A stretch of 43,105 nucleotides of DNA from a virus (Duplodnaviria > Caudoviricetes). The DNA is taken from IMG/VR virus record IMGVR_UViG_3300037458_000852, positions 1-43,105 of that record; one strand, given 5' to 3'. The notes beneath the pieces are model-generated. The model had not been told where the DNA came from. It saw only the letters and a program-made list of their open reading frames with translations, and did not search any database. Shown piece by piece: positions 3,278 to 28,615 of the stretch (positions within the stretch are counted from its first letter, which is position 1; each line of letters starts with the position of its first letter). The position numbers and the translations under genes are program-made.

Positions 3278-3935
3278 GAGAGTTCCTCTCGCTCATCGCG
3301 ATCTTGGTCGCCAAGGCGATGTTGGCGCATACCTCATCGTACCGTCCTTCAGAGCGGATTCGCTCCCAACGGCGCTTGTGTGCTTCACTCATCTTGCGCT
3401 TCACGTCGTCTGGGAGAGTCTTTCCACGCCAGGCCTTACCAGTGTCACCATGGACAAATGGGACTGCCGACAGAGACCCGTATCGCTCAATCATTGTCTC
3501 ACGTCGAGCGGCACTCTGTCTCGACTTGAGAGTGGGGTCGTTGACGAAGGACTGTTTGATACTTGCTGACAGCTTGGCGTTCCACTCAGAAGTACGAGGA
3601 GCAGCGAAGCCTGCCAGCCCGTCACCACCGTCTGTCGCGTTCGTCAACCGATGACCAGTCGATCGTAGGTGCGCAATCCACCACTGCTCAGCTTCAGCAA
3701 GCTCACTCTTCTTCATCTCGCTGCACTCTAGCACTAAGTACGTTGGCTCAACACCTTCTTGCGCCAGTGAATAGATCCAACACTCGACGTGACGAAGACG
3801 AGGGCAGCGATCACTTGTCGACCACTTGTTGCGACGAGTGATGTAGCCGTGAAGCTCACGCGTGGTGATGCCTACGTACCTGATGTGCTCAGGCTCACGT
3901 GGGTCCATCAGTGCGTAGACGTATGAGTAGGTCAT
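3270..3935 (-). CDS. GIY-YIG homing endonuclease with NUMOD3-like tail
   Basis: YVYALMDPR..IRYVGIT, AEQWWI, LTNATDGGDG, KRKMSEAHK; lower GC than flanks; overlaps both neighbours. Confidence 0.85.
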   Translation of the reverse strand: MTYSYVYALMDPREPEHIRYVGITTRELHGYITRRNKWSTSDRCPRLRHVECWIYSLAQEGVEPTYLVLECSEMKKSELAEAEQWWIAHLRSTGHRLTNATDGGDGLAGFAAPRTSEWNAKLSASIKQSFVNDPTLKSRQSAARRETMIERYGSLSAVPFVHGDTGKAWRGKTLPDDVKRKMSEAHKRRWERIRSEGRYDEVCANIALATKIAMSERNSHD

Positions 3936-6787
3936 TTGCGACCATACATCGCACGATGAAGCTGATCACCTGTCCACATACCGGTGACCTCTCTATGGCG
4001 TAAGCTGCAGTATCCCTTGGCCCTCACTCCCAGGTACTTGCTCAGGTGACGCACGCACCGGCGCCAGTCTCCACCGGTGCCCCAGCGAATCTTAGCGCCA
4101 CCCTCGCCAACAGTCCAGTAGCGACGGAGCCGTTCAGCGTTCCCGCGATTCCGATCAGCGCCACCAGCGGAGACGAGAGCCAGCAGCTCATTGTCGACGC
4201 TCCAAAGTGGCATGAGCATGATGTCCTGAATCGACGCGAACATCACCTCGTCGTCTACACCCTCGACGTCGACGGTGTCGTCATCAGGTCGCAGGCCAAG
4301 CAGGTACTCGTCACCCTGGTAGTCACCTTCCCAGAGAGCGAGCTTGTCGAACGTGATTGATGATGGCGGCTCACCTGTGGCCGGGCTCGGCGGGTAGCCA
4401 AGTGTCAGGTGCGGTGTCCACTTGGGATACTGCTTCGTGGACTCGTACGCTGACCTCACCGTCGGATCCTCGAGCAGGCTGTCACGCGCCCAAGTGAACA
4501 CGCCTGGGTCGAGCATGACCACATCAGCCTCGTCGTCACCCAGCTTCTCGCGGCCCACCACGTCCAGCGTGGTCGGCTCCAGCTCCTGAGCCTCGCGCGC
4601 GACAGCTGCGTGCATCACGTCGAGTGACTCCGGCGGAACGTCCTTGCCGAAGAACAGCATCGTCATGTGCGGGACCTGCTCGCTGGATGCGTCCCACACC
4701 GGGTCACCCTCGGCCGGCACCGCGACGAGCACGATGTTGCTCTTGTCGGGGATCCCGCCAGCCGCGGTGACGGCAGGCTCGCCCTCGGCGGGAGCAGGCT
4801 CGTCGCCCGCTGCGTCAACCTGGGCGAGCACGTTGTCGAAGAGCTCACCATCGAGAACCACGACTGGCGGCGGCGTTGGCGACTTGAGGTCCTGGATGAT
4901 CGCGGGATCCTCGACCCACTCGTCACTGACTCGCTTGAACGAGGTCGTCGTCGGCGAGCCCTCCTCCTCGGGAGCGATGGCGACCAGCTCCATGACTGCC
5001 TGCGGGTCGTCCTTGGCGACGATCGCGAAGTAGATCGGCTTGACCTCCTCGGTCGCGCCGCCAGGCAGCTCAGCCGCGGCGAGCAGCACGTCGTCGATGC
5101 TGGTGGTCTTCTTCTGTGTCGGGTACTTCTTGTGCTTGTACCGAGCGTCGTGGCGGGCCTTCTCCTTGGCCTTGGCACGGTCCTCTGCCCGGATCTTCGC
5201 TGCCTCACGGCGACGGGCCTCACGAGCGATCTTCGCACTCTGGGCTGGAGCCGCCGCCACCTCAGCTGCGCGACGCACCCGCTCCTCGTAGGAGTTGAGC
5301 ATGCCGTGCAGTTCCTTGGTCAGGATCTTCGACAAGTACTCGGGCAGCCGGACGCCGGTGACTCGCCGACCGTACGTGGTGCCGCCGGAGATGCGCCGCT
5401 CACGCTCAGCGCGCCAGGTGTTGGCGTCCTCGCGTGCCTTGACCGCGGCCTTGTCCTTGCGAGCCTCGTCGGCGGCCTTCTTCTTCTTGATCGCGTCGGC
5501 CTTGCGCCGCGCGTCCGCGGCCTTGTTGTACGCGGCGATGTCGGGGTAGCGCTCGGCGTTCGTCTGCCTCTTCCCGCTCGTGGTCGCCTTCGACCCGGCC
5601 TTCTTGTCGAGCTTGAGCTGCTTCCCGTCGACCGCGTACAGCGTGCCCGACTTGCCCCGCACGATCACCTTGCCGTCGGACGGGCGCGTCCCCACAACGG
5701 TGACAGGAGTGCTCCCGGCCATCGCCCTGTCACCCTGCTGGATGAACATGCCCCGCGCGTCACGTGCCTGGCGCTTCGCGTTCTTGGACCGCTCCTCCGG
5801 CGTGTACACGCCGTCACCGTGGTTGATGCTCGGGTCTGCCGTCCGCTGCGGGCGAGGCGCGGCCGCGGTCATCACGCTGTCGACGAGCACGTCGTCGATG
5901 GAGAAGACGAGCTCCTGCATCATCGCCCACTCGGCGGGGTCGATGTCACTCAGCGCAACGGGCATCTCGGGTGCGTCGTAGAGCGCGGCGGCCACGTACA
6001 TCGCCGCGTCGTCGTCCAGCTCACAGACCGGGTTGTACATGAGGCTCGGGTCACCGGCCGGGTCGTCGCACTCGGCCCAGTCGCCGTTCGACCAGACAAG
6101 CCAGCCACCGTCTGGGCGCTGCGCGAACAGCGCGATCACGCGCTCCATGGATGGGCCGTCGAACTGGCCCCACAGCGCGTGCTCGCCAGCTTCACCGGTG
6201 AGCAGGCCCAGGTTGACGCCAGCGTCCGCGACGAGCGTGTCGGTGGCGCCGATGATCTTGGCTGCCCAGCGCTGTCCAGCGTCTCCGCCCCACAGCGACC
6301 AGCTGACCCGCTCTGGTGACGGGAACTCGGCTCCACCCGGCTGCCAGCCGGCGGACTTCCGATCGACGTCACGCGCGCTGAAGTACCGGTTGACGTGCTT
6401 GACTGTCTCGACGTCGACGTGCCCGCCGGCAAGCAACGTGTTCGCGACACTCAGGCCAACCACGGTGCTGCAGTCGTCGTGGTCGAAGCACCAGTCCAGC
6501 GCCCGCTCGACCTCCTTCTGCACCACCCTCGGAACCGCGAACGTGCGCTGCTCACCGGCTGAGGCGACGATCGCGATCTCGGAGTTGATCATCTCAGCGG
6601 CCGTGGCGGCGAGCTCGGCGAGCGCACCCATGCCCTCCGGGAGGAGGACGGCGCCACCGTTGACGTCGATGATCGAGTGCTGACGAGTCTGCTTCGTGAT
6701 GGGGTCGACGGCGATGCCAACGCCGCCGACGTCGAAGACGACGTTCCTGCCTTCGATCCCAACCAGCTTTGGCTGGACTGCCATCAC
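3932..6787 (-). CDS. Multidomain head-associated protein with 2H phosphoesterase (2'-5' RNA ligase/Acb1-like fold)
   Basis: Two HxT motifs (PHMTM ~4660-4675, PHLTL ~4400-4415); SWSLWGGDAG domain; C-terminal RYW..GEG.AKIRWGT.GD..RC..GYC..RH domain; lies between portal and protease. Confidence 0.75.
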   Translation of the reverse strand: MMAVQPKLVGIEGRNVVFDVGGVGIAVDPITKQTRQHSIIDVNGGAVLLPEGMGALAELAATAAEMINSEIAIVASAGEQRTFAVPRVVQKEVERALDWCFDHDDCSTVVGLSVANTLLAGGHVDVETVKHVNRYFSARDVDRKSAGWQPGGAEFPSPERVSWSLWGGDAGQRWAAKIIGATDTLVADAGVNLGLLTGEAGEHALWGQFDGPSMERVIALFAQRPDGGWLVWSNGDWAECDDPAGDPSLMYNPVCELDDDAAMYVAAALYDAPEMPVALSDIDPAEWAMMQELVFSIDDVLVDSVMTAAAPRPQRTADPSINHGDGVYTPEERSKNAKRQARDARGMFIQQGDRAMAGSTPVTVVGTRPSDGKVIVRGKSGTLYAVDGKQLKLDKKAGSKATTSGKRQTNAERYPDIAAYNKAADARRKADAIKKKKAADEARKDKAAVKAREDANTWRAERERRISGGTTYGRRVTGVRLPEYLSKILTKELHGMLNSYEERVRRAAEVAAAPAQSAKIAREARRREAAKIRAEDRAKAKEKARHDARYKHKKYPTQKKTTSIDDVLLAAAELPGGATEEVKPIYFAIVAKDDPQAVMELVAIAPEEEGSPTTTSFKRVSDEWVEDPAIIQDLKSPTPPPVVVLDGELFDNVLAQVDAAGDEPAPAEGEPAVTAAGGIPDKSNIVLVAVPAEGDPVWDASSEQVPHMTMLFFGKDVPPESLDVMHAAVAREAQELEPTTLDVVGREKLGDDEADVVMLDPGVFTWARDSLLEDPTVRSAYESTKQYPKWTPHLTLGYPPSPATGEPPSSITFDKLALWEGDYQGDEYLLGLRPDDDTVDVEGVDDEVMFASIQDIMLMPLWSVDNELLALVSAGGADRNRGNAERLRRYWTVGEGGAKIRWGTGGDWRRCVRHLSKYLGVRAKGYCSLRHREVTGMWTGDQLHRAMYGRK

Positions 6788-7402: not shown

Positions 7403-10400
7403 TCAGTAGCCGAGCTTGCGTTCGAACGTGCCATCCGCTACCTCACCGCGTAGCTGCTGCAGCTGCGCGTCGATGTAGTCAGCGAGGCTAGACGTCGCGT
7501 AGTCGGCGCTTGCCTTGCTGTTCGCGTCGATCGCCTCGTCAACCAGCTGGGTCATGAGCGTCTTGAAGCGCTCTGAGCCAATCCTGTCATGGATCTTCTG
7601 GAGGTACCGTGAGTACGCTCCACTGTAGGCACCGGTGATGCGGTCAGACGGCGTGCTCCAGCCGTTCATCGGGTCCCACCGGAGGTTGTCGCCATGCCGA
7701 GCGATCGCGTTGAACGCGTTGTCGACCGGGATCAGGTAGAACTTCCCGTCACTGGCACGCTGCGCGTACTGGTAGTTCCCGTCGTGACGGTCGCCGTTGC
7801 CGAAGAGCCCGTCAAGCATCTGGAGTCGGATCGGGTCACGGTAGTCGACGTACTCCTCAGGTGAACGAGGGCGACTACGCGCCACGGCAGCATTCTTCGG
7901 CCGCTCAACGAGGTCGAGGTTGTCACCAACGCGCTGCATGACGATCATCGCGTCCTCGACTCGGCTACGCTCGAACCCTGGGATGCCGTTGTAGCCCATT
8001 GCAGCGAGGTACTTGTTCGGGTCACGCTCGCCATTCGCTCCGTGGATGGGGTCTTGTCCCTGCCACTGGCTGGCGATCTTGTCCCACTTGACGAAGTACA
8101 CCTGGCCGGTTGCCTTGTGGGTGACCTTGAACGTATAGTTGACGCCACCCTCTCCGCGCGTGAGCTCCTTCACCTTGTAGTCAGCAAGTTTCCCAGGAAC
8201 AGCACCAGCGCGACCGCGGCCGGCTGCCGTCTGAAGATCTGCGAGACTCACGTCGCGGAGCGCGTCGCCAGCTTGCGGTAGCGTTCGCTGGGCGGGGAAG
8301 TCCAGCCCGATCTCGGCGTCAAGAGCGTTATTCAGCGCGTCCAGGTCTGCGTCCATTCCGCTGTACGCCCATCCAGCACGCTCGTTGCGCTTCCAATCGG
8401 CGAGGACCACGTTCACCATCGTCTTCAAGTCACGCTTGACGAGCGGCGGCAGCGTGGCGAGCGAGTCGCCATTCAGAAGCGCGTCGCCGACCTGGCGCGA
8501 CCACTTCTGGAGCCGGTCGCTGCCTCCCATCGCCTTGATGTTCACCGGGTCGACAACCACGCGAGCAAGATCAGGAGACTGGACTGTGTTCTGCTTGTTC
8601 TTGGCACGCGCCTCGGCGGCCTTGAGCCCATCATACGCGACCTTCTGCCTGTACGCGTAGTCTTCAGGCTGCAGGCTCTTGGCACCGTGCCAGTCCATGC
8701 TCCGCATCGTCTGCTTGCCGACCCAGTCCTTCTTCCCAGGACGCCACCCGACGAGTGCCAGCTCCATCGGAGTCGGGATGACGCCCGCTGCGCCGCCGCG
8801 GATGCTGCTGACTCGCTTGCTCAGCTCGGTGATCTGCGCACGCTCAGCGTCGGTCGAGGCCATCCTGCCCATCATGCCGAGGATGCTGTCGACCTTGCGC
8901 ATCGTAGCAGTGCGCTGTTGCACCGGGTTCGTGCCCCAGATGCTCATGTCCCAGCCGAAGCCGTTGACCGACCAGACGTAGCCACCAGTCCAGTCTCCGC
9001 CACCAGCTGCGTGGACCTTGACCTTCTTGACACCGTTGGCGATGTACCAGTTCTCCATCCAGCGGTTGTACGCTGACGAGAAGCCACCACCTCGCTTGTC
9101 GCCTTCGATACGCATGAGCATGTTCTCAGGCACGTACTCTTCAGTGCTGCCGTTGTACCTGATCTTGCGCTCGACCTTGCCGATCCGCTCGTCTCCGTCG
9201 TAGATGTACATCGAGATGTTCAGCGTCTTGTTCCGACCGCTCTTGGTGACCTCGTGGTACCCGTACTTGAGCGTGTACTTGCCGTCGCCGAACGCGAAGT
9301 CGCTGCCAACGCCGAACACCTTCTCGATGTCCGCGCGGTTGTTCTCGCCGGCGAAGATGTTCTCGATGGACGTCCGAGTGCGTGCTGCAGTCGCGATTTC
9401 AGCAGCTCGCGTGCGCCAAGCCGCGAAGTCGACCTGTTTGGCGTCAGGATTGGCCGAGTTCTCGTTGACGTCGAGCGGCTCGGACACTCCAGGCGTCTTG
9501 CCAGACTGCTCAACGTCACCGACGTTCGGGTTGAACGATTCGACGTAGTCGGCTGGTGTCACCGGCGAGCTTGGGTCAACCGGCTTCTCGCCAACCTGGC
9601 GACGGGCACGGTTCTGTCGCTGCAACGCGGTTGCGTACTTGGTGACCTGCGCTGCGACATCGTTCTGACCAGCGCGACGGAGCAGGAATGAGGCACGCTG
9701 GAACTTGAGCAGCATGCCCGCCATGTCGCCGTCTTCGAACGCTGACCGTGCGTCGTCGAGTGCGAAGCCAGCGTTGCGGCGATCGCGCTCAGGTGCACCG
9801 AGTGCACGGCGAGCGCGCATCGGAAGACGAACGCGGATCTTGGACAGCCCGTCAAGCAGCTCGGCTTCGTCGAGGTTCGCGAGATCGTCAGCAACTGCTG
9901 GCGCGGCTGGCGCGGCTGGAGCGGGAGGTGCAGCTGGCGCTGCTGGAGCGGCAGGCGCAGGCGCAGGCGGAACCGCGCCATCTCCACCGTCTGGGGCGGG
10001 CGGTGGATTGTCGATCCGGACCAGTCGGCGCCCTGAGCGCACAATCACGCGGCCGTCATCGAGCTTGATCCGAGCGTATGCAGGCTCCTGCTGAACGACC
10101 GTGACTGTACCTTCGAGACCGTCGGCGCCGCGAACTCGGATGCCCTTGTAGATCGTCCGGCCAAACCGGTCGTTGATCACGCCGTTCGGCACGTAGCGGT
10201 TGATCTCATCTGGTGCTGCACCGGCAGGCTGTGGTGGCGTGGCAGCGGGACGGGGCGCGACAGGTTCGCCAGGCGTGCTCTCCTCTGGGATGTCTGCGCC
10301 AGGAGGCCATGCCCACTGTTCGGGAGGCTGCGGACGCGCCAGCTCCTCCTCGATCATCCGGCCAATGTCGTCGTCACTGATCCGGCCGTCGATGCCGAGG

Positions 10401-13400
10401 TTCTCCCAGACGCGCTCGCCACGAATCTCGCCACCGTTGTCGATCCGCTCTGCGATCTCCTCATCGGTAAGCTCGCGAACGAGGTTGGCACGCTCGAGCA
10501 CAGTCATGACGCGGATGAGCTCGTCGTACTCCCAGTCAGGGAACATGTCCATGACGTCTTGCGTGTCCCACTCGACAACGCCGTTGTCCCCAACGAGTGC
10601 GCCCATCGCGTCGATCACGTGGCGACGCGGGATGTCGTCGTTGATCGCAACCGGGTTGTTGCCCTCGATCTCGTCGGCGAGAGACAGCATCGCGTCTCCC
10701 TCTGGACCGTCGAACGTCGCAGCGAGAGCACGCAGCGCAAGTGCGGCCTCAATATCTCGCCCGTCATTGAGCAGCGTGTCAACCGACTCGATAGCATCGA
10801 GCGTGGCAGAGTCGGCGCCGCCAGCCTCGAGATCGTCACGGAGCACGTCGAGGCCGTACCGGATACCGATGCGGTCGTTACCCTCCTCAGGAGTGGCGAC
10901 GTAGCCGGCTCCGTCAGCACGGTTGCGCAGGAACTCATTGACCTCGCCGGGAGTCCAGTCGTTGGAGACGATGTACGTCGAGCCGTCGATCTCGGCCATG
11001 CGCCCGGTCGGGGACGCCTCGATCCGGCCGTCAGGCAAGCGCGTCAGCGCGAACGGGATGTCCGGGTCGATCTCGGGGAGTGGACGCTCAGCGGCGACCG
11101 GCGGCGCGACGTATGGAGCGTTCGCGGGCGCGGGCGCGGGCCGAGGCCGAAGTCCGACCGCGACACGCGCGGAGTTGAGGTCCGGGTACTCCAAGTACGT
11201 CCACTGGCCGTCGATGGGCTTGGTCTCAACCACGTAGACGCCGGGCTCGGACTGACTCCGGTAGATTGCCATCTCCACGCCGTTGTCGAGACCGGACCAC
11301 TCTGGGTCGACTGTGTTGAGGTCAAGAGCCTCACGGCGATCCCAGTCGATGATCTTGCCTGGCACTGGGCTCCACTCAGCGACAGGGACGACAGGCGCCT
11401 CGACCGGTGCACGTTCAGGGCGACCGGTGACGTCAGGCTCACGAGGTTCTGGCGGCGGGCCGTTCATGCCGTCGCGCAGCGCTTGGATGATCTTGGCGAT
11501 CTCAGGCTTGTGGTTGAAGGGCTGAAGGTTGTCCACCATGTTCTCTGCCGGTGACGGGTTGTCCATCCACCGATTCCAGAACTCATCCGGAGTGTCCCAC
11601 AGGTCACGGACCAGTGAGGTGAGCAGTCGGTCGAGCTGGTTGCCTGGACGCTCCTGCTGCTCTCCGTACTCAGGCATCGCGCGCACAGCGTCAACGTAGT
11701 GCATGAGATCCTGCTGCGGATTGTTGATCTCAGGGAGCGCAAGTGCAGCTGGCGCCTCGTCAGGCGGGTTGAGCTCATTGTCAAGCTGGATGCGATGCTC
11801 GTCTACCTGCTGCAAGATCCGCTCTGGGATCACGTCTTGGTGCTTGTTGCCCCAGGCCGAGAGCTTCTCGGGCGTCATGTTCCTGGCCAGGATCTCGTAG
11901 AGGTCGGTGATCGCCTGGTCCAGGTCCTCCATCCCGCGGTCGTCACGGAGCTCGATCAGCTGGCCGATGTCGTCGTACAGGCCCTCACGTGCTGAGTCAG
12001 GTGACGGCTTCATCAAGCGCATCACCCAGTCCTCGGTGATGCGCGCGTCAGCAGGAGCGGCGGGCACCTGCACGTCTGGGACGTACTCGCGACCCTCACC
12101 GGTTTCCGGGTCGTACTGGATCATGCTCCCGTCGGTCGGGTCGTAGTCAACCCACGAGCCGTCGGGGAGCAGCCAGCGATGTCCGACCATGCGATCGAAC
12201 TCGACCGGGACGGCGTCGACGCGATCGAGCGGGCCTTCAGGTTCAGGCTGCGCAGCGGGCGGCGTCTCAGGAGCAGCGACGCGCTGGAGCCGTCCCTGCT
12301 CGAGGTCGCGCATGATCTGCTCACGCATGGGCACCATGTTGCCGGGCTCGCCCATCCGGTCGCCCTCGTTGTACCAGCCGCCCGGGCCGCGGTACTCGAT
12401 CGAGCCGTCCTTGTTCTGGTAGACGATCGCCATGTTGTAGCCGTCGCCGCCGTACGCGATGACGCGCGCGTCTGGGTCGATCGGCCACGGCTCGTTGCCG
12501 AAGTCGTCGAGGGTCAGCAGCTCGTTGCCGGCGAGGAACTCGGAGACGCTGACCGCGGGCACGTCCTCGGCGATCTGGTCGAGAGCGTCGCGCTGGCGGG
12601 CGGGTGCGGCAGGCTCGTCAGCCTCAGGCAGCGCTGAGTCAGGGACGTCAGGCATGTCGAACACCTCGGGAGCGTTGTCCATGCCACGGCGCTCGTTGAC
12701 CAGGTTCTCGATCTCGATCCACTGCATGTCGATCGCGTTGGCGATCGTCTCCGGGACGTTGTAGTCGCCGTCTGCGTTGATCAGGATCTTGTCGATCCTC
12801 TGGCCGACCAGCGTGATCTTCGCGTACAGCGAGTCAAGCTCTGCAGCGTCGGCGGCCGGGTTCTTGAGCTTCTGAGAGTACGACTTGAGCAGCTTCGCGT
12901 AGCTGCCCAGCTCGGTCCCGTACGTGCCCTGTCGGCCGCGGCGGAGCTCTGCAGCAATGCTCGACAGGTTGTCAGCTGCGTTGGCGAAGTCGTTGCCCCA
13001 CTGCTCGAGATTGACGCCAGGCGCAGGCGCCTCGACGCTCTCTGGGGCAGCGTCAGGCTCAGGTGCGGCGGGAGCCTCGTCGACAACAACCTGGTCGCGG
13101 ATTTCATCCCAGGTGTCGCCACCCTGGTAGTGGTCATCATAGAACTCGCGGATCGCGTCCTCACGACCGGAGAGCTTGACAGCATCACCGTTCGGCCCTG
13201 GGATGAGCTCAGCGGTGATACCTGCGTCCTCAGCGTCAGACATGAACTGACTGATCTCGTCTTGATCCTCGAAGAAGGAGTCAAGCTCGACGGTGATCGG
13301 CCGCTCGGCGGCTGCCCAGTCGCGGACCGCGGGAGCGTTCTGCTCCTCGATCAGGTCGTCGATCCGGCCAGCCTGCTCATCAACGTCATCGGCAGGCTGC

Positions 13401-15661
13401 GCGTTGAGCATCGGCTCAAACAGCTGGCCGTCCTTCATCCAACGCTCACGCTGTGCGGGAGTGGGCAGGTCGACGTTCTCGCGAGTCTCCCAGTCGAAGA
13501 ACCGGTCGCCACGAGCCTCGTCCTGGCGGAGCGCGTCGGCGATCTGCTCGCGGTCGCCAGTTTTGATCGCGTCCTTGACCGCCTGCCCGACGCCAGCCCG
13601 TTCAGCGGCCGCCTGAGCCTCCTCCTGTGAGACCGGGACAGGCAGGTTCTCACGGGCAGCGTCAACGCGAGCCTGGCGACGCTGGCGCTCGCCCTCAAGA
13701 GCGTCGTCGCGCGCAATCTGGATGTCATCGGCGCTAGGTGCGATGTCCTGCACGATCTCGCGTCGAGCGACGTCTGCGTCACGGCGAGCCTGGGCGGCGT
13801 CCTGTGGGTTGTTGAACCCTTGGTACGGGTTGCGCGGGTCGAACCACTTGCCGTTGTGCTTGTTCAGACCAACCATGACCCCGTCATCAGCACGGACGAT
13901 GCGGCTCCATGTCTCAGCAGCGTTGGCCGAGACCGGCATCTCGGTCCAGCCAACCGGGATGCCCGCGTCACGCGGGTCAGCTGCAGGCAGCTCAGCAGGA
14001 ATACGTGCCTTCGCGCCATCTGCGGCACCAAGTGGAGTGGCGAACTTCGCGTCCTCCATCCCATTCGGGCCCTTGGCGATACGCCAGGCAGCGGGACGCC
14101 GCCGTCGATCGGCTCCGAACTCATCCTTCGGCCGACCAACGATGGCGCCGTCAGGAGTCTTCCACTTCTCCGCCCAGATGCGCTTCTCGCCAGGGCTGAG
14201 GCTCTGCTGCTCCCAACCGTCTGGGATGAAGAACCGCTCCATCCCAGCGCGAGCACCAGCGTCACGCGCTCGCTGCAGCTCGCCATCCAGGTCGGCGACG
14301 CCGTTTCGCTCAGCTCGTGCCTGCTCACGCAGATCTGGAGCGGCAGGAGCGGCCTCGGCAGGCTCGGCATCGGGGATGCGCGCTTGGACGAAGTCACGCA
14401 GAGAGGCCAGCCCGTCTGCGTCCTCGGAGAAGCCGCGGAACGCGTCCGCGTCCTCTGGGCTGGCGTCCAGCAGCTCCTGGTGGATCGCTGCGGCGTCGTC
14501 AGCGAGGCGAGCGAGGCTCTCCTTGTCCGTGGAGGCCGGGTCCGAGCCGGACAGCCGCTCAATCAGCGCGTCCCGGCGGGTCGCGTTCGGCGAGTTGTCC
14601 GGGACCAGGCGCTTCAGCTCGGCGACGGCCTCATCTGCGGCCTTGCGGAACTCGTCCGCGTCAACCGGGTCGGTCGCCATGTCCTCAGCGGTTGGCGTGA
14701 CGTGCTTCAGGTCGAGGTGCGCGATCGCGGGAGCCGGGTCGTTCGGGTCGTCCGCGTCGCCAGTCTGCATGCGCGCGGCGAGCGCCTCCTTGATCTCATC
14801 CATCTGGACCTTGAGCGCGGGTGCGTCCTGGCCGCCCCGGGAGAACGCGGTGTTGAGCTTGTTCCACTGCTCCTGCAGCTGTGCGTCGGATCGGCTCTCG
14901 TACTTGCGGGCGACCGCGGCCTTGCGGAGAGCGGCGGGGTCGGGCAGCGTGGCCTTGATCTTCTCAACCTTCGCGGCCGGGACCTTGACCTGTCGCCCGT
15001 CCTCGAGCTTGACGTTCACCTTGCCGTTCGCAACGTCCATGCCGTTCGCGACGCCGTGCAGCCAGCGGAACCCGGGGCCGACGCCCGGCATGTCAACCTT
15101 GAAGCGGATCCCGCCGCCCATCTCGATCCACTTGCCGAACCGGTCACGCAGCTGGCGCATCGCGCGCAGCCGGCGCGCCATGCTCGAGTTGCCGTCCGCA
15201 ACCAGAACCGTGAGCGCGTCGGTCAGGGCGAACAACTGCGGATCCCGCGTGGACCGAGCCAGCGCCCGGTTCAGGTTGAACGCGCGGCGCGGGTCTGCAT
15301 CACTGTAGAGCGCAGCGGAGGCGATCAACGCACGGACCTCGACCGCGTTCAGCTCGCGCGCCAGGTGCGCAGCGTCCGCCAGGCTGGCGACCAGAGCCGT
15401 GCGCCGCGGGTAGAGGTCTGAGTCCTGGCAGGGGCGGTTGGAGGAGAGCGCGGCCAGGTACGCGTCGACGCGCTTGAGCGCCTGCCGCTCACGGAGCATC
15501 GGTCCGCCGGAGCGCGACTGCTCGACGCCGCGGACATACACCGTGGCCAGCACGGTCGGGCTCACTCGGGCGCTCGGCCGGGCCTTCGCGTTGTGGACCG
15601 CGGCCTTCGCGCGGAGCGCGTTCTTGGCGACCGGTGGAACTCGGACCTCGCTCGCGCTCAT
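7403..15661 (-). CDS. Giant (2752 aa) multidomain virion/head protein with GNAT-like and C-terminal HipA/PI3-4-kinase-like domains
   Basis: ATGA-coupled to portal stop. Kinase motifs GGVN..YFVK..E..DRHDGN..IPVDN (~7400-8170); GNAT-like RGGGFSS..GVKKVKVHA..GGYVW..GF (~8680-9300); SH3/KOW-like segment ~10020-10170; long acidic Pro/Ala linkers. Confidence 0.75.
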   Translation of the reverse strand: MSASEVRVPPVAKNALRAKAAVHNAKARPSARVSPTVLATVYVRGVEQSRSGGPMLRERQALKRVDAYLAALSSNRPCQDSDLYPRRTALVASLADAAHLARELNAVEVRALIASAALYSDADPRRAFNLNRALARSTRDPQLFALTDALTVLVADGNSSMARRLRAMRQLRDRFGKWIEMGGGIRFKVDMPGVGPGFRWLHGVANGMDVANGKVNVKLEDGRQVKVPAAKVEKIKATLPDPAALRKAAVARKYESRSDAQLQEQWNKLNTAFSRGGQDAPALKVQMDEIKEALAARMQTGDADDPNDPAPAIAHLDLKHVTPTAEDMATDPVDADEFRKAADEAVAELKRLVPDNSPNATRRDALIERLSGSDPASTDKESLARLADDAAAIHQELLDASPEDADAFRGFSEDADGLASLRDFVQARIPDAEPAEAAPAAPDLREQARAERNGVADLDGELQRARDAGARAGMERFFIPDGWEQQSLSPGEKRIWAEKWKTPDGAIVGRPKDEFGADRRRRPAAWRIAKGPNGMEDAKFATPLGAADGAKARIPAELPAADPRDAGIPVGWTEMPVSANAAETWSRIVRADDGVMVGLNKHNGKWFDPRNPYQGFNNPQDAAQARRDADVARREIVQDIAPSADDIQIARDDALEGERQRRQARVDAARENLPVPVSQEEAQAAAERAGVGQAVKDAIKTGDREQIADALRQDEARGDRFFDWETRENVDLPTPAQRERWMKDGQLFEPMLNAQPADDVDEQAGRIDDLIEEQNAPAVRDWAAAERPITVELDSFFEDQDEISQFMSDAEDAGITAELIPGPNGDAVKLSGREDAIREFYDDHYQGGDTWDEIRDQVVVDEAPAAPEPDAAPESVEAPAPGVNLEQWGNDFANAADNLSSIAAELRRGRQGTYGTELGSYAKLLKSYSQKLKNPAADAAELDSLYAKITLVGQRIDKILINADGDYNVPETIANAIDMQWIEIENLVNERRGMDNAPEVFDMPDVPDSALPEADEPAAPARQRDALDQIAEDVPAVSVSEFLAGNELLTLDDFGNEPWPIDPDARVIAYGGDGYNMAIVYQNKDGSIEYRGPGGWYNEGDRMGEPGNMVPMREQIMRDLEQGRLQRVAAPETPPAAQPEPEGPLDRVDAVPVEFDRMVGHRWLLPDGSWVDYDPTDGSMIQYDPETGEGREYVPDVQVPAAPADARITEDWVMRLMKPSPDSAREGLYDDIGQLIELRDDRGMEDLDQAITDLYEILARNMTPEKLSAWGNKHQDVIPERILQQVDEHRIQLDNELNPPDEAPAALALPEINNPQQDLMHYVDAVRAMPEYGEQQERPGNQLDRLLTSLVRDLWDTPDEFWNRWMDNPSPAENMVDNLQPFNHKPEIAKIIQALRDGMNGPPPEPREPDVTGRPERAPVEAPVVPVAEWSPVPGKIIDWDRREALDLNTVDPEWSGLDNGVEMAIYRSQSEPGVYVVETKPIDGQWTYLEYPDLNSARVAVGLRPRPAPAPANAPYVAPPVAAERPLPEIDPDIPFALTRLPDGRIEASPTGRMAEIDGSTYIVSNDWTPGEVNEFLRNRADGAGYVATPEEGNDRIGIRYGLDVLRDDLEAGGADSATLDAIESVDTLLNDGRDIEAALALRALAATFDGPEGDAMLSLADEIEGNNPVAINDDIPRRHVIDAMGALVGDNGVVEWDTQDVMDMFPDWEYDELIRVMTVLERANLVRELTDEEIAERIDNGGEIRGERVWENLGIDGRISDDDIGRMIEEELARPQPPEQWAWPPGADIPEESTPGEPVAPRPAATPPQPAGAAPDEINRYVPNGVINDRFGRTIYKGIRVRGADGLEGTVTVVQQEPAYARIKLDDGRVIVRSGRRLVRIDNPPPAPDGGDGAVPPAPAPAAPAAPAAPPAPAAPAAPAVADDLANLDEAELLDGLSKIRVRLPMRARRALGAPERDRRNAGFALDDARSAFEDGDMAGMLLKFQRASFLLRRAGQNDVAAQVTKYATALQRQNRARRQVGEKPVDPSSPVTPADYVESFNPNVGDVEQSGKTPGVSEPLDVNENSANPDAKQVDFAAWRTRAAEIATAARTRTSIENIFAGENNRADIEKVFGVGSDFAFGDGKYTLKYGYHEVTKSGRNKTLNISMYIYDGDERIGKVERKIRYNGSTEEYVPENMLMRIEGDKRGGGFSSAYNRWMENWYIANGVKKVKVHAAGGGDWTGGYVWSVNGFGWDMSIWGTNPVQQRTATMRKVDSILGMMGRMASTDAERAQITELSKRVSSIRGGAAGVIPTPMELALVGWRPGKKDWVGKQTMRSMDWHGAKSLQPEDYAYRQKVAYDGLKAAEARAKNKQNTVQSPDLARVVVDPVNIKAMGGSDRLQKWSRQVGDALLNGDSLATLPPLVKRDLKTMVNVVLADWKRNERAGWAYSGMDADLDALNNALDAEIGLDFPAQRTLPQAGDALRDVSLADLQTAAGRGRAGAVPGKLADYKVKELTRGEGGVNYTFKVTHKATGQVYFVKWDKIASQWQGQDPIHGANGERDPNKYLAAMGYNGIPGFERSRVEDAMIVMQRVGDNLDLVERPKNAAVARSRPRSPEEYVDYRDPIRLQMLDGLFGNGDRHDGNYQYAQRASDGKFYLIPVDNAFNAIARHGDNLRWDPMNGWSTPSDRITGAYSGAYSRYLQKIHDRIGSERFKTLMTQLVDEAIDANSKASADYATSSLADYIDAQLQQLRGEVADGTFERKLGY

Positions 15662-17445
15662 CTCAGCAGCTCCTGTGGTGACACGGTGTCGCTTGGCGTT
15701 GGTGACGTGGGTGGCGCGGGCGCGGTGGGTGGCGCGAACGGGTCAACGCCCTCGGGGATCACCTCGGCGGGCTCAGCGGGAGTGGCCGGCGTGCCGCCAA
15801 TCGCCTGCATGATCTCGTCCGGGACCGGGTTCTCCGCGCTGGCCTGGCTCGCCTCGCGCATCGACGCCATCAGCTTCGGCGCGAGCACCTGCAGCATCGC
15901 CTCGGTGAACTCAGGAGTGATCGAGCCACGCTCCATGACCAAGCGCTTGGCGAGCTCGTCAGGAGTGGGGACGTCGTCGTCCGTGAACCCGTGCGAGCGA
16001 CGCCAGGCGTCGTCTGAGACGATGTAGCGGTCGTAGCCGGCGTCCGCATCCTCCGCGCGGTTCGGGCGGGTGGTGACCTCGCTGGGGTCGTACCAGACGA
16101 CGTACTTCTCGATCTCGGGCTCGTCCACACCCAGCGCACGGAGCATGGGTCGCAGGTACACGTACGTGAGCGCGTCGCAGATCAACAGGGCCAACGGCTC
16201 GATGTGAGCCTTGTACAGGGACTCGTCGATCTGCAGAGCGTTCGCGTACTTCACGTTCGCCAGGCCGGTGACGATATCCTTCGGCACGTCCAGGCCCTGC
16301 ATGATCCGCTCGAGCACTCGGTCCGAGCGGGCAGCCAGCGCCGGGTCGAACGAGCGCTCGAACTTGAACTGCTTGATCTTGTCCGCCAGCTCGGCGGGTC
16401 CGCGGATGATCAGCGGCACAACGGCCGCGGCGGAGTCCTCGTCGCTGATCGGCGTGGTCATCGCCTCGATGAGCGCTTCCTCGAACTCGTCCTCGTCGGC
16501 GGTGACTGAGGCGGACGCGCCCGCCAAGGCGGCCGCGTCTACTGAGTCGTCGCCCAGCAGGTCAATGTCCGTGGGATCCGGGCTCGCCGAGACCGAGAGG
16601 CCGTCCGGCATGTACATCATGCCCGCGTTCAGGCGTGAGCGCGCAGTTGCGCGGAACGTCCGGTTCAGGAGCAGCAGCTCCGCGCAGAGGTCCAGCATCC
16701 CGCGCAGGCTCGAGTCGGCCTCGTTCGAGAACCGGGGGTGCTGTCGCCAGATCCGAGCGACGAACGCGTTCTTGGGGAGCAGCTGGATGTCCTGCATCCG
16801 CGCATCGCGCGCGGTCTTCACAGAGACGCGGCCGTTCCCGACCACCATCTCGTCGACCGAGCGGATGTCCCAGGACTCATCGACCTTCGGGAACGCAGAG
16901 GCGGGGGTCTGCACCAGGTTGCACTCACCGGTCACGCACAGGTTCAGGGCCGCGTCGCGGAGCATGCCGGGCTGGCCGCCGAACGCGGAGCTCAGCCGGA
17001 CCAGCGCGCCCACCACCATCGCCTCGACCTTGTCGTCCGTGTCCGGGTCGAGCTGGGTCGGCGCCTCGGCCGGGTCGTCGATCCGGGCCGAGTACAGGCG
17101 GACGCGGCTCATCACGTTCGCGACCAGCGTGAACGCGTACTTGATCTCGCCGATCGCGTCGTAGTACTCCCACGCTTCGCTCTGCCACTCGTTTCCTGAG
17201 CGCGCACGCGCGAGGAGCTCAACCGCGTTCTGGTCGTCCAGGTTGATCCGCCGAGCGGACGCTGTCATTGAGCGGACAGCTGAGTAGGGGAGCGGCTGCT
17301 GCACGCGGGTGCCGTCAGGGTTCGTGGGCCGGACGGCCGTACGAGCACGCTGAGAGTTCGAGGCGGGTGACAGGCCAGCGCGTGCTCGACGCGCGGCGAC
17401 CGCTGCTGGAGTGGTGCTGGGCTCTCCACGCGTGAACATGCCCAC
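15658..17445 (-). CDS. Portal protein
   Basis: WQSEAWEYYDAIGEIKY..MSRVRLY, RIWRQHPRFSNEADS, ATARSRLNAG, SAAAVVPLI, GLDVP motifs recalled from cluster-B-type actinophage portals; GAAGGAGG SD. Confidence 0.85.
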   Translation of the reverse strand: MGMFTRGEPSTTPAAVAARRARAGLSPASNSQRARTAVRPTNPDGTRVQQPLPYSAVRSMTASARRINLDDQNAVELLARARSGNEWQSEAWEYYDAIGEIKYAFTLVANVMSRVRLYSARIDDPAEAPTQLDPDTDDKVEAMVVGALVRLSSAFGGQPGMLRDAALNLCVTGECNLVQTPASAFPKVDESWDIRSVDEMVVGNGRVSVKTARDARMQDIQLLPKNAFVARIWRQHPRFSNEADSSLRGMLDLCAELLLLNRTFRATARSRLNAGMMYMPDGLSVSASPDPTDIDLLGDDSVDAAALAGASASVTADEDEFEEALIEAMTTPISDEDSAAAVVPLIIRGPAELADKIKQFKFERSFDPALAARSDRVLERIMQGLDVPKDIVTGLANVKYANALQIDESLYKAHIEPLALLICDALTYVYLRPMLRALGVDEPEIEKYVVWYDPSEVTTRPNRAEDADAGYDRYIVSDDAWRRSHGFTDDDVPTPDELAKRLVMERGSITPEFTEAMLQVLAPKLMASMREASQASAENPVPDEIMQAIGGTPATPAEPAEVIPEGVDPFAPPTAPAPPTSPTPSDTVSPQELLR

Positions 17446-21980: not shown

Positions 21981-22006
21981 GCATGTCCAAGATGTACAAT
22001 AGTCCT

Positions 22007-22480
22007 ATGCCCTGCGTCTACGTCTTGGTGTCGGCAGCAGCACCAGATGTTGTCCGCTACGTCGGGATCACCAGCTACGACTCGCCGGACCGCCGGTTCG
22101 CTGCTCACAGGGCAGAAGCCCGACCTGGTGGCACAAGATCACCACTCTACGACTGGATGCGAGACGAAGAGCACGTGCAGGTCCGCGTGGTGAAGGTGAC
22201 GACGACACAAGACGAGGCAGCACAGCTTGAGCGCGAGATGATCGCTGAACTTCGAGCCAGTGGCGCTAAGCTGTTGAACGTGTCAAGCGGCGGTGAACGA
22301 GGCTTCACCTTCGCCCACAGCGACGCTGCGAAGATGAAGATCAGCGTTGCATTGAAAGGCAAGCCAAAGAGTGACGCGTTCCGTGCAAACCTGACTGGCA
22401 GAACGCTGAGCCCAGAGACTCGAGCAAAGATCGCTGCTGCGAATCTTGGTAGGCGAAAGCCTCGGCGAACAAGCCCATAA
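22007..22480 (+). CDS. GIY-YIG endonuclease with NUMOD3 motifs (leaderless)
   Basis: CVYVLVS..VRYVGIT, EREMI, LLNVSSGGE, HSDAAKMKIS, SPETRAKIA; TACAAT 6 nt before ATG 22007. Confidence 0.85.
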   Translation: MPCVYVLVSAAAPDVVRYVGITSYDSPDRRFAAHRAEARPGGTRSPLYDWMRDEEHVQVRVVKVTTTQDEAAQLEREMIAELRASGAKLLNVSSGGERGFTFAHSDAAKMKISVALKGKPKSDAFRANLTGRTLSPETRAKIAAANLGRRKPRRTSP

Positions 22481-22484
22481 ATGA

Positions 22485-22698
22485 AGAGAAGACCACCCGA
22501 AGGTGGCCTCTCCCCTGGGTCGGTCGCTCGGCCCTGAGGCTGTGCGTCGTTTCCCCGACAGACCGGGCCGCCCTGTCCATTCCTCACTGGCTATCCGAGG
22601 ACCGCCAGCTTGGTGCGCCGAAGCGCAGGGCCGTTCTTGTCTGCCGATGACTCGTTGCCGGGTCATCTATTCGCTACCGCCGAGGCTGCAGCGCGTAG
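22485..22698 (-). ncRNA. Candidate structured non-coding RNA (~210 nt)
   Basis: Bounded by a CTGTAC-18-TATAGT promoter (22704-22733) and a terminator hairpin (22489-22511); GCAA, UUCG and GAAA tetraloop hairpins, nested long-range stems and a possible pseudoknot; no credible ORF. Confidence 0.6.
22489..22511. terminator. Terminator hairpin between convergent units
   Basis: - strand reads gaggccacc-uucg-ggugguc(uu)-cucuucauuu. Confidence 0.7.
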
Positions 22699-22703
22699 GA
22701 TGA

Positions 22704-22733
22704 ACTATACACGGTTCATTCTGACTTGTACAG
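22704..22733 (-). promoter_or_regulatory. Promoter lacking the RBS half of the cassette
   Basis: CTGTAC-18-TATAGT; no AACGACGAAGGGAC downstream. Confidence 0.6.
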
Positions 22734-22889
22734 CTCGCGAACCTCGCGCACGATCAGAGCCTTGCCCTCTTGCCGCGACCCCTTATGAAGCTTGCGCCAG
22801 GTTCGCATCTTCGACGCGGCGCCCTTGCGCGTGTGACACCAGAACTCGCTGCTCCGGCCGGCGCGGTGATCAAGGTCACGGTTACTCAA
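22716..22889 (-). CDS. Small basic hypothetical protein (57 aa)
   Basis: GAGGAGG SD, TTG start overlapping the upstream stop; read manually. Confidence 0.45.
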   Translation of the reverse strand: MSNRDLDHRAGRSSEFWCHTRKGAASKMRTWRKLHKGSRQEGKALIVREVRELYKSE

Positions 22890-23238
22890 CGTCTTCCTCC
22901 TCGTCCGTGAACGCGTCAGCCATCGTCGGCAGCGTCTGGACCAGCTGTTGGAAGCCCTTGTCGTTGCGCATGTTGCCGATCACCCGGGCCACCGTCGCCA
23001 TGTCGGGCGTGGCCGAGCACCCGCGGCAGCGGACGAAGTACTGGGGGATCCCGTCGTTCAAGCGTGCCATGCCGAACCAGGTGTGCAGCCCGAGCACGTG
23101 CTTGAACCAGACCACCAGCTGGTCTCGCCACTGGAACTCCCACCGGTACGCCAGGTGCCGGCGACGTCCACCCGGATAGCCCACGCACTCAGCGAGCGTG
23201 TGGTCAAGCGGGTGGAACTGGCTGAAGTCGATGTTCAT
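22882..23238 (-). CDS. Hypothetical protein with CxxC
   Basis: ATGA overlap with LuxR stop; GACGAAGGGA SD; H..W...CRGC. Confidence 0.7.
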   Translation of the reverse strand: MNIDFSQFHPLDHTLAECVGYPGGRRRHLAYRWEFQWRDQLVVWFKHVLGLHTWFGMARLNDGIPQYFVRCRGCSATPDMATVARVIGNMRNDKGFQQLVQTLPTMADAFTDEEEDVE

Positions 23239-23543: not shown

Positions 23544-23868
23544 CAGTGCTGACCCGGGCGTCAACGGCGAACCGGTCGCGTCGCTTGTCGATGGAGTAGT
23601 GAGCCCACTCGAGCAGCGCCTCCTCATGTGAGCGAGCGTGGTGAGCGCAGGTGAGGATGTGCTGGTTGTCGCGCACCCACCGAACCCAGGCCTCCGCGCC
23701 ACAGCGGTCGCACCGGTCGGCGGCGGTCAGCGCCTGGCTGATGACCTGGTCGTTCAGCGTCTCGACCGGCACCGGGTGCCACCTCCCTCGCTCGTCCCGT
23801 TCATGGTACTCGCCCTGGAGCGCCCGTCGGAACTCCTCCCAGTCGACGTTGATCTTCTCTCCGGTCAC
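23536..23868 (-). CDS. Small actinobacterial Zn-binding protein (DUF7455-like)
   Basis: LTAADRCDRCGAEAWVR..LTCAHHARSHEEAL. Confidence 0.7.
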   Translation of the reverse strand: MTGEKINVDWEEFRRALQGEYHERDERGRWHPVPVETLNDQVISQALTAADRCDRCGAEAWVRWVRDNQHILTCAHHARSHEEALLEWAHYSIDKRRDRFAVDARVSTDV

Positions 23869-24788
23869 AACACGTTCATCTCCTTTGCCAGCGCGTACGC
23901 AGTCTCAGCCCACACCGTGGGCGTGAGATCCTTCGGGCGGTAGCCTCCGGCGCCACCCATGATAACCCTTGCCCCCAGGTCTCGAGCGGCTCTACCGACC
24001 ATCCTGGCGGCCTCCCGGTACCCTTCAAGCGTGTAGCCAAGGGATGACAACGGGTCGCCCACCACTCCGTCGGCGCCGGCGACCAGCAGGATTGTCGTCA
24101 CGCCCGGGCGCATGTGGGGAGAGTCAACCGCCTCTTGAACGGCTGCCAGGAACTCGTCGTCACCTGACCCCGGCCCGAGCGCATGGTTGTACACGTTCTC
24201 ACGTGGGCTGTCAGTCAACCCAGTCCCGGGGAAGATCCCCTTCTCATGGATGCTGAACGTGGTGATGCGTTGGTCAGCGCGGGTCAGTGCCTCGACTCCA
24301 TCGCCGTGATGCGCATCCCAGTCCAGGTAGAACACGTGCTCGCCGTAGTGAGCCAAGTAGCGAGCCGCGTACGCCATGTCGTTCAGCACGCAGAACCCGC
24401 TGGAGTGGTTGAACCCGGCGTGGTGCTTGCCTCCTTGCCAGTGGATCCCCAACTCACCGGGCTTCACCTCGTGCACCAGCTCAGCGGTTCCGTTGAACAT
24501 GCGAACGGCGAGGGCGCCCAGGTCTGGGCGGTGATCGTCCCAGCCGTTGGTTCCCCACTCGGTGCTGTAGCCCTGGGCCACGCGGCGCACGTAGACGTCG
24601 TCGTGCACCCCCAGGGCTACAGCTGTGCGCAGCACGTCGTCGCCGCTGGCAGGCCCAGACACTCGAACCGACGCGGTGCCAGCCAGCTCGAGGAACTGCT
24701 TCGTGGCCAGCCGTGAACGGATCCCGTTCGTGGGTCCGCCGAAGTGCCAGCCGTCGTATGCGTCGGTGTGCTTGAGGTGAATGGTCAT
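23865..24788 (-). CDS. Zn-dependent histone deacetylase/AcuC-family deacylase
   Basis: GGKHHA..SSGFCVLND, YLDWDAHHGDGV, SIHE..FPGTG, GADG..GDPLS, GGY motifs all present. Confidence 0.92.
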   Translation of the reverse strand: MTIHLKHTDAYDGWHFGGPTNGIRSRLATKQFLELAGTASVRVSGPASGDDVLRTAVALGVHDDVYVRRVAQGYSTEWGTNGWDDHRPDLGALAVRMFNGTAELVHEVKPGELGIHWQGGKHHAGFNHSSGFCVLNDMAYAARYLAHYGEHVFYLDWDAHHGDGVEALTRADQRITTFSIHEKGIFPGTGLTDSPRENVYNHALGPGSGDDEFLAAVQEAVDSPHMRPGVTTILLVAGADGVVGDPLSSLGYTLEGYREAARMVGRAARDLGARVIMGGAGGYRPKDLTPTVWAETAYALAKEMNVL

Positions 24789-24979: not shown

Positions 24980-25260
24980 CGGAGTTCCTCCCTCATCTCG
25001 AGCGCGCGGGCAACCCGGACGACCTTCTCCTCCCACACCCAGAGCAGGTGCTCCAGGTCTCGGGTGGTGACCACCTCGGTGGCTGCTCTCACCTTGGCGT
25101 GGAAGTCGATGAGCATCTCCGCGTACTGGTCACGCTCCTCCTCGACTCGGCTGAGCAGCGTGTTGGTGGTGCGGGCCAAGCTGTCGGAGTTTGCCTGGAT
25201 GATGTCGGCCATGAGCCGCACCCCAGCGCCGTCGTAGCTGTCGGGGCCGTCGGTCACCAT
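24976..25260 (-). CDS. Hypothetical coiled-coil protein (94 aa)
   Basis: GGAGG SD before ATG 25260; the longer track ORF overlaps the phosphatase. Confidence 0.65.
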   Translation of the reverse strand: MVTDGPDSYDGAGVRLMADIIQANSDSLARTTNTLLSRVEEERDQYAEMLIDFHAKVRAATEVVTTRDLEHLLWVWEEKVVRVARALEMREELR

Positions 25261-25769
25261 GCGATCACCTCCAGCTCGTCGAGCTCGCGGATTGCGCGCT
25301 CGAAGTCTCGGTTGCAGAGCACCCACTTGCTGCGCGTCTGCCGAAGGAGCTCGATCGCGTTCTCGGCTGTCCAGCCGGCGCGAATCAGGACCAGTGCCGT
25401 GATCAACCCGGACCGGTTCAGCCCGGCCTGGCAGCGGATCAGCACCCGGTCGCCGGCTTCCCAGCGTCGGTGGGCCCAGTTCACCGTCTCGGCCAGCTTG
25501 CCCCACTCGGGCAGCTCTTGCGAGTCGTAGAAGCCCCATCGGAGCTCCTCGACCTCCCAGTCGACGGGCCGTGCCCACGCGTACAGCGTGACAACCGCGT
25601 CGAACTTGGCCTTGGTGATCTCCCGGTTGCCGTAGTACGTCTTGGCCGGGACGTCGATCGTGTCGTCGTCGTCGGTGCCACCTTGCCAGAGGCCGGGCAG
25701 TACCTCGGTCCACAGCTCGTCGGGAACTGTGATCAGTCGTTGGTGTGTGAGTTCTTCGAATGTTGCCAT
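25254..25769 (-). CDS. Dual-specificity/tyrosine protein phosphatase
   Basis: EVLPGLWQGG; catalytic CX5R loop VLIRCQAGLNRSG; AIELLRQTR..N.DF. Confidence 0.92.
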   Translation of the reverse strand: MATFEELTHQRLITVPDELWTEVLPGLWQGGTDDDDTIDVPAKTYYGNREITKAKFDAVVTLYAWARPVDWEVEELRWGFYDSQELPEWGKLAETVNWAHRRWEAGDRVLIRCQAGLNRSGLITALVLIRAGWTAENAIELLRQTRSKWVLCNRDFERAIRELDELEVIAW

Positions 25770-28084: not shown

Positions 28085-28125
28085 GGGAAAAGCAAGAGAG
28101 CGGGCAGCTTTCGCCACCCGCCCTC
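28085..28125 (-). terminator. Intrinsic terminator upstream of lysis genes
   Basis: - strand gagggcgggtggc-gaaa-gctgcccgctctc followed by ttgctttt. Confidence 0.7.
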
Positions 28126-28615
28126 AAGACTGTCTGGCTCTGTGTTTGTCCCAACGCGCTTTACGCGCGCGGTCTCCCGGGTCACCTCTCATTCGTGCTG
28201 AACGTTCTTCGCTAGTTTGCGCAACGTATCCACGCATTCGTCCCTTGCGCACCGCATCCTGGAGATTGTCCTTCTGCGTGCCGATGAACAGATGCTGTGG
28301 GTTGTAGCAGTCTCGGTTGTCGCAGTGATGGCAGACCTGCTCCGGCATCACCACATCACGACCGAAGGTGACGAACGCGACGGCTACGTAGAGCCTCACC
28401 TTCTTGTCCTTCAGCCGACACCCACGCTTCCCGCCACCCAGCCAGCACCCGTTCTCATCCACGTCGAGGATCGGGTAGATCTTCAGCAGATTCTCGAGAG
28501 TGTAGGGGAACCAGCACTGTTGGACGTGTCTGCCCATGGGCGTGCGTCTGGTCCGGTAGCCACACCCGTTCGGGCATTCGACTACCGGACCAGTTCCTTG
28601 GATCCCATCTGTCAT
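28124..28615 (-). CDS. HNH endonuclease
   Basis: [32 protein letters not shown]; N-terminal CPNGC..H..C finger. Confidence 0.88.

Follow-up and report, generated by a model that had tools for sequence, protein, structure and literature searches.

Abundant intergenic non-coding RNAs have been described in actinophages, among them nc_1-3 of Rhodococcus phage WC1 and the RNAs of cluster A mycobacteriophages (accessible part of PMC10986025). In bacteriophage T4, the free-standing GIY-YIG endonuclease SegB is encoded among tRNA genes and the genes for RNA species I and II and, in the available sections of PMC2330249, is described as driving the inheritance of the tRNA region, the two RNAs included. 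Viral single-guide RNAs sequester Cas9 (bioRxiv 10.64898/2026.06.01.729453, available text), and the translational T-box of actinobacterial ileS genes is a structured leader RNA with a specifier stem, an S-turn, stem II pairing, a T-box sequence and a downstream synthetase gene (PMC10651847, available text).

The RNA gene considered here shows partial likenesses to each of these systems. It resembles the actinophage RNAs, as far as the accessible part of PMC10986025 portrays them, in belonging to an actinobacterial phage, in its intergenic position, in lacking an ORF and in having no exact function assigned; it differs in being compact and multi-hairpin, in carrying its own terminator and in having no sequence match in INPHARED. 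Like T4 RNA species I and II, it is a non-tRNA gene close to a free-standing GIY-YIG endonuclease, which in either setting could spread the flanking DNA. The T4 RNAs arise by processing of a tRNA-cluster precursor, whereas this RNA has its own promoter, and, unlike the segB region as it appears in the available sections of PMC2330249, the locus is convergent to the endonuclease gene in a window without tRNA. Viral single-guide RNAs are phage RNAs that act as protein decoys, the mode proposed for this RNA; they measure ∼90 nt and consist of a guide and a repeat:anti-repeat stem, in contrast to the ∼216 nt found here, and they are set apart by description, the available text of bioRxiv 10.64898/2026.06.01.729453 carrying no mention of Actinobacteria. 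The likeness to the ileS T-box amounts to six short words in the same order with partly similar spacing, and none of the T-box hallmarks listed above for PMC10651847 is present.

The locus is very probably a non-coding RNA gene, as it has its own promoter, its own terminator and no ORF. A sequence-only reading had proposed a stand-alone structured RNA of no recognised family, and Rfam, the promoter context, the fold and the relatives all support that proposal. The RNA represents a family not described before, of a kind already known: stand-alone phage non-coding RNAs of so far unassigned function. No description of it was found in the literature. The screen of PMC10690425, with 10,006 candidates, was covered in part: seven of its supplementary files held no match to the words tried, and the RNA may still be present among the candidates.

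The DNA analysed, referred to as the window, comprises all 43,105 bases of a virus record. Its portal protein (15658-17445) shares 59% identity with the portal of Actinomycetia phage DSL-LC01 and 50-53% with those of large Microbacterium phages, and the window is therefore regarded as a fragment of a large actinobacterial phage. Small cassettes line up to the right of the head genes, and each has a promoter of the TATAAT type and, ahead of the start codon, the leader motif GACGAA(A/G)GGA. The motif occurs in 24 copies on the minus strand of the window and recurs in DSL-LC01 as well as in further relatives. Gene cassettes with a common promoter (often CCTGA TATAAT) and the leader motif, at least 27 in all, extend over 21382-42835, mostly on the minus strand. 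Further minus-strand genes of the window encode a phage-borne protein of the histone-deacetylase family (23865-24788), with at least 94 relatives in viral contigs, a phage-borne dual-specificity phosphatase (25254-25769) and, within the group of head genes, a 951-aa protein (3932-6787) that has a domain resembling 2'-5' RNA ligases. On the same strand, the portal gene is directly followed by a 2752-aa ORF (7403-15661) for which Pfam gives no match.

A scan of the window yields 28 promoters. The leader motif follows within 114 nt in 24 of them and is found as a variant or a more distant copy in three more; only the candidate promoter at 22709 leads into a terminator with no such ribosome-binding motif in between. 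Its -35 hexamer is the commonest of the set (5 of 28 cassettes), and the promoter overlaps the last codons of an upstream 57-aa ORF, for which a homologue search found nothing. Another minus-strand promoter, at 30104-30000, shares the CTGTACAAG -35 context with the RNA gene and drives a 90-nt leader that is unusually A-rich and bears short GAGTT(T)C repeats ahead of the ribosome-binding motif. Two other minus-strand cassettes (42296-42155 and 26205-26100) have leaders of 90-130 nt before that motif, which are possibly regulatory.

The predicted transcript (Table 1) has a start inferred from the -10 spacing and an end placed at the terminator tail. The UUCG terminator is present as proposed and may also stop the convergent plus-strand unit, in which the GIY-YIG/NUMOD3 gene is preceded by a promoter at 21725; the tail-to-tail arrangement of the two genes holds. 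The endonuclease gene is inverted relative to its surroundings and is located between two minus-strand terminator-like hairpins. Altogether, three free-standing homing-endonuclease-like genes are distributed over the 43 kb: GIY-YIG/NUMOD3 (21983-22480, plus strand), HNH (28124-28615, minus strand) and NUMOD3 (40327-41094, minus strand).

Table 1. Coordinates of the RNA gene, its neighbours and a second phage RNA (window positions unless a locus is named; motif halves in the 'earlier motif' lines are those of the sequence-only reading)
Feature	Position	Strand	Details
Upstream 57-aa ORF	22716..22889	-	present in run X4, replaced in run X5
Promoter	22704..22732	-	-35 TGTACA 22732-22727, 17-nt spacer, -10 TATAGT 22709-22704
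Earlier motif, promoter	CTGTAC 22733-22728, TATAGT 22709-22704	-	
Predicted transcript	22481..22696	-	∼216 nt
Hairpin 1	22672..22693	-	CGCUGC/GUAGCG, cCUCGg loop; pair probability 0.99
Earlier motif, outer stem	CUCGGC 22684-22679, GCCGAG 22532-22527	-	
Hairpin 2	22646..22667	-	GAUGAC/GUCAUC, GCAA (GNRA) loop; pair probability 0.98
Earlier motif, GNRA hairpin	GAUGAC 22667-22662, GUCAUC 22651-22646	-	
Central domain	22557..22645	-	GGCAGAC/GUCUGUC stem, purine-rich internal loop, GCCCU/AGGGC stem, three-way junction
Earlier motif, central stem	GGCAGAC 22645-22639, GUCUGUC 22563-22557	-	
Junction arm a	22615..22626	-	GCGC-UUCG-GCGC, cUUCGg cap
Junction arm b	22586..22609	-	GCUGGC/GCCAGU, inner GUC/GAU stem, cCUCGg loop; pair probabilities 1.0, 0.94
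Earlier motif, crossing pairs	GCUGGC 22609-22604/GCCAGU 22591-22586; UCCUC 22601-22597/GAGGA 22585-22581	-	
13-mer CGGGGAAACGACG	22545..22557	-	identical to 5' half of phage leader motif at 33539 and 30496
3' irregular hairpin	22517..22555	-	cUCAGg loop; pair probabilities 0.69-0.99
Intrinsic terminator	22481..22515	-	cUUCGg loop, hairpin 22510-22489
GIY-YIG/NUMOD3 homing-endonuclease-like gene	21983..22480	+	free-standing; Pfam PF01541 and PF07460, phrog_314
Second RNA	L534:874-1094, L477:1209-1420, L502:1363-1583	+	
Second RNA, further loci	L506, L504, L533, L470, L527, L468, L483	+	

The predicted transcript folds at -102.7 kcal/mol with a z-score of -3.16 (1/200 shuffles), and the interval first singled out gives -2.76 (0/200 shuffles). 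Folding is strand-specific: the z-score is -2.1 without the terminator and close to 0 for the opposite strand. From 5' to 3' the ensemble prediction places hairpin 1, hairpin 2, a central domain, an irregular hairpin and the terminator. The two stems of the central domain have pair probabilities of 0.99 and 0.77, and the domain on its own reaches a z-score of -2.4. Five stems of the predicted fold are capped by cYNMGg loops and one by a GNRA loop; five cYNMGg stems within 217 nt occur in 3/5000 shuffles and at no other site of the window, the motif having been chosen for counting after the fold was seen. The hexamer CCUC(G/A)G is found three times in the RNA, as in 3/2000 shuffles. YNMG loops are general stability caps, and their repetition thus need not denote a binding site.

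All the motifs of the sequence-only reading are found on the minus strand, and its GNRA hairpin and GGCAGAC/GUCUGUC stem are recovered in the predicted fold; other parts of its model fare less well. The GCCCUG/CAGGGC motif exists and five of its pairs are predicted as GCCCU/AGGGC; the model uses G 22626 twice. Forcing the proposed outer stem CUCGGC/GCCGAG yields -69.2 instead of -80.7 kcal/mol, a cost of 11.5. Both halves prefer local hairpins (pair probability 0.99), among them hairpin 1, which that model missed and which competes with the outer stem. The crossing pairs had been interpreted as an H-type pseudoknot. In the classical form the middle loop measures 0-1 nt, and a last loop of several nucleotides crosses stem 1. 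The loops here would be 2, 5 and 0 nt, which is non-classical, and no energy is gained: the cCUCGg-capped stem is worth 4.5 kcal/mol and the competing crossing helix 5.6 before loop costs. A classical H-type pseudoknot RNA was accordingly rejected, and the hint of self-cleavage finds no support.

Near-identical copies of the locus exist in public sequencing runs. A run index for 22300-22900 lists 22 runs of 15 studies, and in the four runs aligned, from four studies, the relatives of the RNA are 95-99% identical. Of the other 18 runs, two may be the source, and those with a small share do not count as evidence. Two RNA libraries (studies P7 and P8) hold one contig each, 22554-22686 and 22523-22676, both wholly inside the predicted RNA, with zero depth on the flanking ORF parts (601 nt compared, ∼370 nt of flank). 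These are Logan contigs of depth <4, devoid of strand, ends or level and possibly due to DNA carry-over, and one RNA run matches possible source runs in habitat and year; they give a weak to moderate hint of a discrete transcript.

The DNA run X5 matches 22452-22687 and 22683-22734 in two contigs, possibly from different genomes, and turns unrelated beyond 22734, just outside the -35 box. The promoter, retained at 51 of 52 letters, and the RNA are thus kept behind other DNA, and a cassette boundary lies at the -35 box. By manual reading, the changes in X5 leave the terminator stem unbroken; the change at 22581 favours neither fold model over the other. Run X4 shows no listed substitution in 72 nt of the RNA, as against three in 149 nt of the upstream ORF, and has a 2-nt insertion that, read by hand, would add two pairs at the base of hairpin 2. 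At a loose contig end (one contig, depth 4), X4 reads GCAC-CUCG-GUGC in place of GCGC-UUCG-GCGC in arm a: a compensatory change that introduces another YNMG loop and a fourth CCUC(G/A)G copy. The covariation record consists of this hairpin and three structure-compatible changes, all in near-identical copies; with relatives as close as 95-99% identity, the evidence of covariation comes down to one hairpin at the end of a single low-depth contig. The same relatives bear on the coding alternative that had been raised, an ORF of 127 codons from ATG 22666, which starts inside a hairpin. No Shine-Dalgarno sequence precedes this or any other start codon of the RNA, and the frame is broken by indels in four relatives (+2 in X4, +1 in X8, -1 at a loose end in X7, -1 in X5), although single low-depth contigs can hold errors.

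Searches for distant homologues were negative within the sets covered. In INPHARED, blastn returned 101 records with short matches, a best coverage of 16% and no real homologue; the plasmid search gave no match. Five exact-word scans of IMG/VR returned at least 5, 43, 39, 75 and 34 loci, none of which extends beyond the seed. Among the loci inspected in word scans of metagenomes (120 of ∼190, from 42 of 64 parts) and genomes (120 of ∼710, from 11 of 64 parts) none is real, and the latter include no T-box. A DNA search of 401 genomes found 20 with short matches of ≤58 nt, and none of the seven of 15 loci inspected extends further; the locus L652 from this search is the antisense of a long ORF. 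Two of these genomes are unpublished and count in this tally alone. A covariance model of this single sequence (R1), weak on distant relatives, finds one copy in the window, no match in the best 80 of 584 portal-linked loci, in DSL-LC01, in 80 of 94 deacetylase-linked loci or in 70 related phage records (31 + 34 + 5, mostly fragments), and one partial match (E 0.049) in 151 actinobacterial genomes. As some of these counts are lower bounds and many of the records are fragments, homologues are to be called not found rather than absent; the search sets may also leave out the nearest relatives of the window. Not having been found in the 70 related records, the RNA does not count among the core functions of the phage group.

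A second orphan stand-alone structured RNA emerged in related actinophages: ∼215 nt plus a terminator, ∼5 kb before a deacetylase gene and mostly behind a CCTGATATAAT-type promoter. Eight of its 22 predicted pairs are compensatory, far better covariation than that of the RNA at 22481-22696, and the four loci scanned have no Rfam match. The two RNAs are alike in promoter type, stand-alone character, proximity to a deacetylase gene and lack of Rfam match. Membership of the present RNA in this L534-type family was rejected, as neither model R2 with filters off nor profiles give a match at the locus.

Catalogued families offer no home for the RNA. Rfam 15, which covers riboswitches, ribozymes, 6S/Ms1, SRP, RNase P, raiA, OLE and others, has no match in the window at gathering threshold; at E ≤10 it returns rsmX (0.28), RNAI (3.2) and one lncRNA fragment, the first two leaning on the terminator. 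ARAGORN finds no tRNA or tmRNA gene in the window, and apparent likenesses to SAM-I, c-di-GMP-I, HDV-like and RNase P RNAs have no Rfam support. Sponge RNAs of the CsrB/Rsm type present many GGA motifs in hairpin loops. With five GGA where 6.2 would be expected, and not one of them in a predicted hairpin loop, the RNA shows no GGA enrichment and does not belong with the CsrB-like RNAs. That it is a ribozyme or riboswitch centred on the pseudoknot is highly improbable: the crossing UCCUC/GAGGA complement exists and would stay paired as U-G after the only change seen in it (X5, 22581), but no ribozyme or riboswitch family of Rfam appears at the locus even at E 10, the loop lengths are non-classical with no gain in energy, and no downstream gene is there to be regulated. 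Just as slender is the chance that the RNA is a remodelled descendant of a host ileS-type T-box aptamer, captured, rebuilt with ultrastable loops, spread by the endonuclease and freed to grip or shield tRNA in trans. For comparison, 30 leaders, 28 of them distinct, were extracted from 40 ileS loci. The words shared in consensus order are GACCCGGC (22664), AAGAAC (22638), CCAGU (22590), GGCCCG (22569), CACAGCC (22544) and GAGCG (22529). On a whole-length profile of the 28 leaders the RNA outscores 499 of 500 shuffles and takes second place in a set of 780 phage windows, a shuffle p-value that is inflated because the T-box was picked out of many families, and one of five pairwise alignments beats all 200 shuffles. 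Yet the profile gives -15 bits, where real T-boxes score 49 or more, and nhmmer returns no match at E 10. The covariance model R3, built from 21 leaders (16 pairs hold in 99% of cells), gives only negative scores at the locus and 131.7 and 24.5 bits on two held-out leaders. The ileS stem I, CCGG/CCGG with a CAUCA specifier loop, is invariant in 21/21 leaders and absent here, the stretch forming hairpin 2 instead. In the consensus stem II, AAGAA and AGUAGAA strands are closed by a 5-bp helix; the RNA has AAGAAC, but AGUGAGGAA stands in place of the 3' strand, and no closing helix is possible. The S-turn strand is missing, as are the T-box sequence GGUGGUACCGCG and the synthetase gene: there is only a GGUGGU inside the terminator stem, and no gene follows. 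T-box membership was therefore rejected on the negative R3 result, the profile score and the missing specifier stem and T-box sequence; distant descent is a small possibility.

Other explanations concern what the unit does, if anything. That it has no function, as a decayed G+C-rich cassette folding by chance or as the mRNA of a short peptide, is distinctly unlikely: the narrow distribution, the two low-depth RNA contigs and the 127-codon frame would fit, but strand-specific folding, the excess of tetraloops, structure-keeping changes, frame-breaking indels and the missing Shine-Dalgarno sequence weigh against it. Nor is a local role likely, in which the convergent unit and the shared terminator restrain a potentially toxic homing endonuclease and the two form one mobile module. 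The RNA terminator abuts the endonuclease stop codon at 22480, X5 keeps the RNA together with the last 28 nt of the endonuclease gene behind different upstream DNA, and T4 SegB, in the available sections of PMC2330249, offers a parallel. For such a role, however, promoter and terminator alone would suffice, leaving 180 nt of ordered, conserved fold unexplained; in addition, the RNA does not overlap the endonuclease gene, and no RNA partner of this sort accompanies either of the two other endonuclease-like genes in the window. A base-pairing small RNA, whose CCUC loops would bind host Shine-Dalgarno sequences of the GAGG type and spare the GAA(A/G)GGA mRNAs of the phage, seems decidedly unlikely as well. 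The repeated CCUC(G/A)G is in its favour, as is the lack of GAGG in the phage leader motif, but the C-rich stretches sit inside cYNMGg tetraloops, which are compact and poor pairing seeds. The 13-mer CGGGGAAACGACG raises a further alternative, namely a decoy copy of the phage's own leader element that titrates leader binders and helps to time gene expression; this is very improbable. The RNA contains the 13-mer without the Shine-Dalgarno half of the motif, and identity of this length with any of 23 leaders arises in 5/2000 shuffles and 0/77 coding windows. Against this, the match was noticed after the fact in a single copy, X7 seems to miss one G of the 13-mer at a loose end, the 13-mer may be a scar of cassette recombination, and no leader-binding factor is known.

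A stable RNA acting in trans during infection, as a protein-binding decoy or scaffold, is tentatively predicted. A cis switch is unlikely, as no gene follows the RNA; with no antisense match of ≥12 nt to the phage's own minus-strand transcripts and no support for catalysis, binding remains. The thrice-repeated CCUC(G/A)G cap and the large purine-rich loops fit such a decoy or scaffold best, an assignment whose chances fall somewhat short of even. Host RNA polymerase would transcribe the RNA along with the neighbouring accessory cassettes, each from its own promoter, and the tetraloops and the terminator stem would make the product long-lived. Hairpins with the recurrent CUC(G/A) cap, together with the purine-rich loops at the three-way junction, may form a protein-binding surface, by which the RNA would titrate a host RNA-binding protein, such as a defence, regulatory or translation factor. 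It would spread as a promoter-to-terminator cassette, possibly aided by the adjacent homing endonuclease, which may account for its spread whatever its function.

Phage RNAs that act by shape, such as the Cas9-soaking RNAs, are emerging as counter-defence tools, and few are known in actinophages. The RNA described here has a compact form, lends itself to synthesis in vitro and travels as a cassette. The presence of a second, unrelated RNA under the same type of promoter in related phages points to a place reserved for stand-alone folded RNAs in this group.
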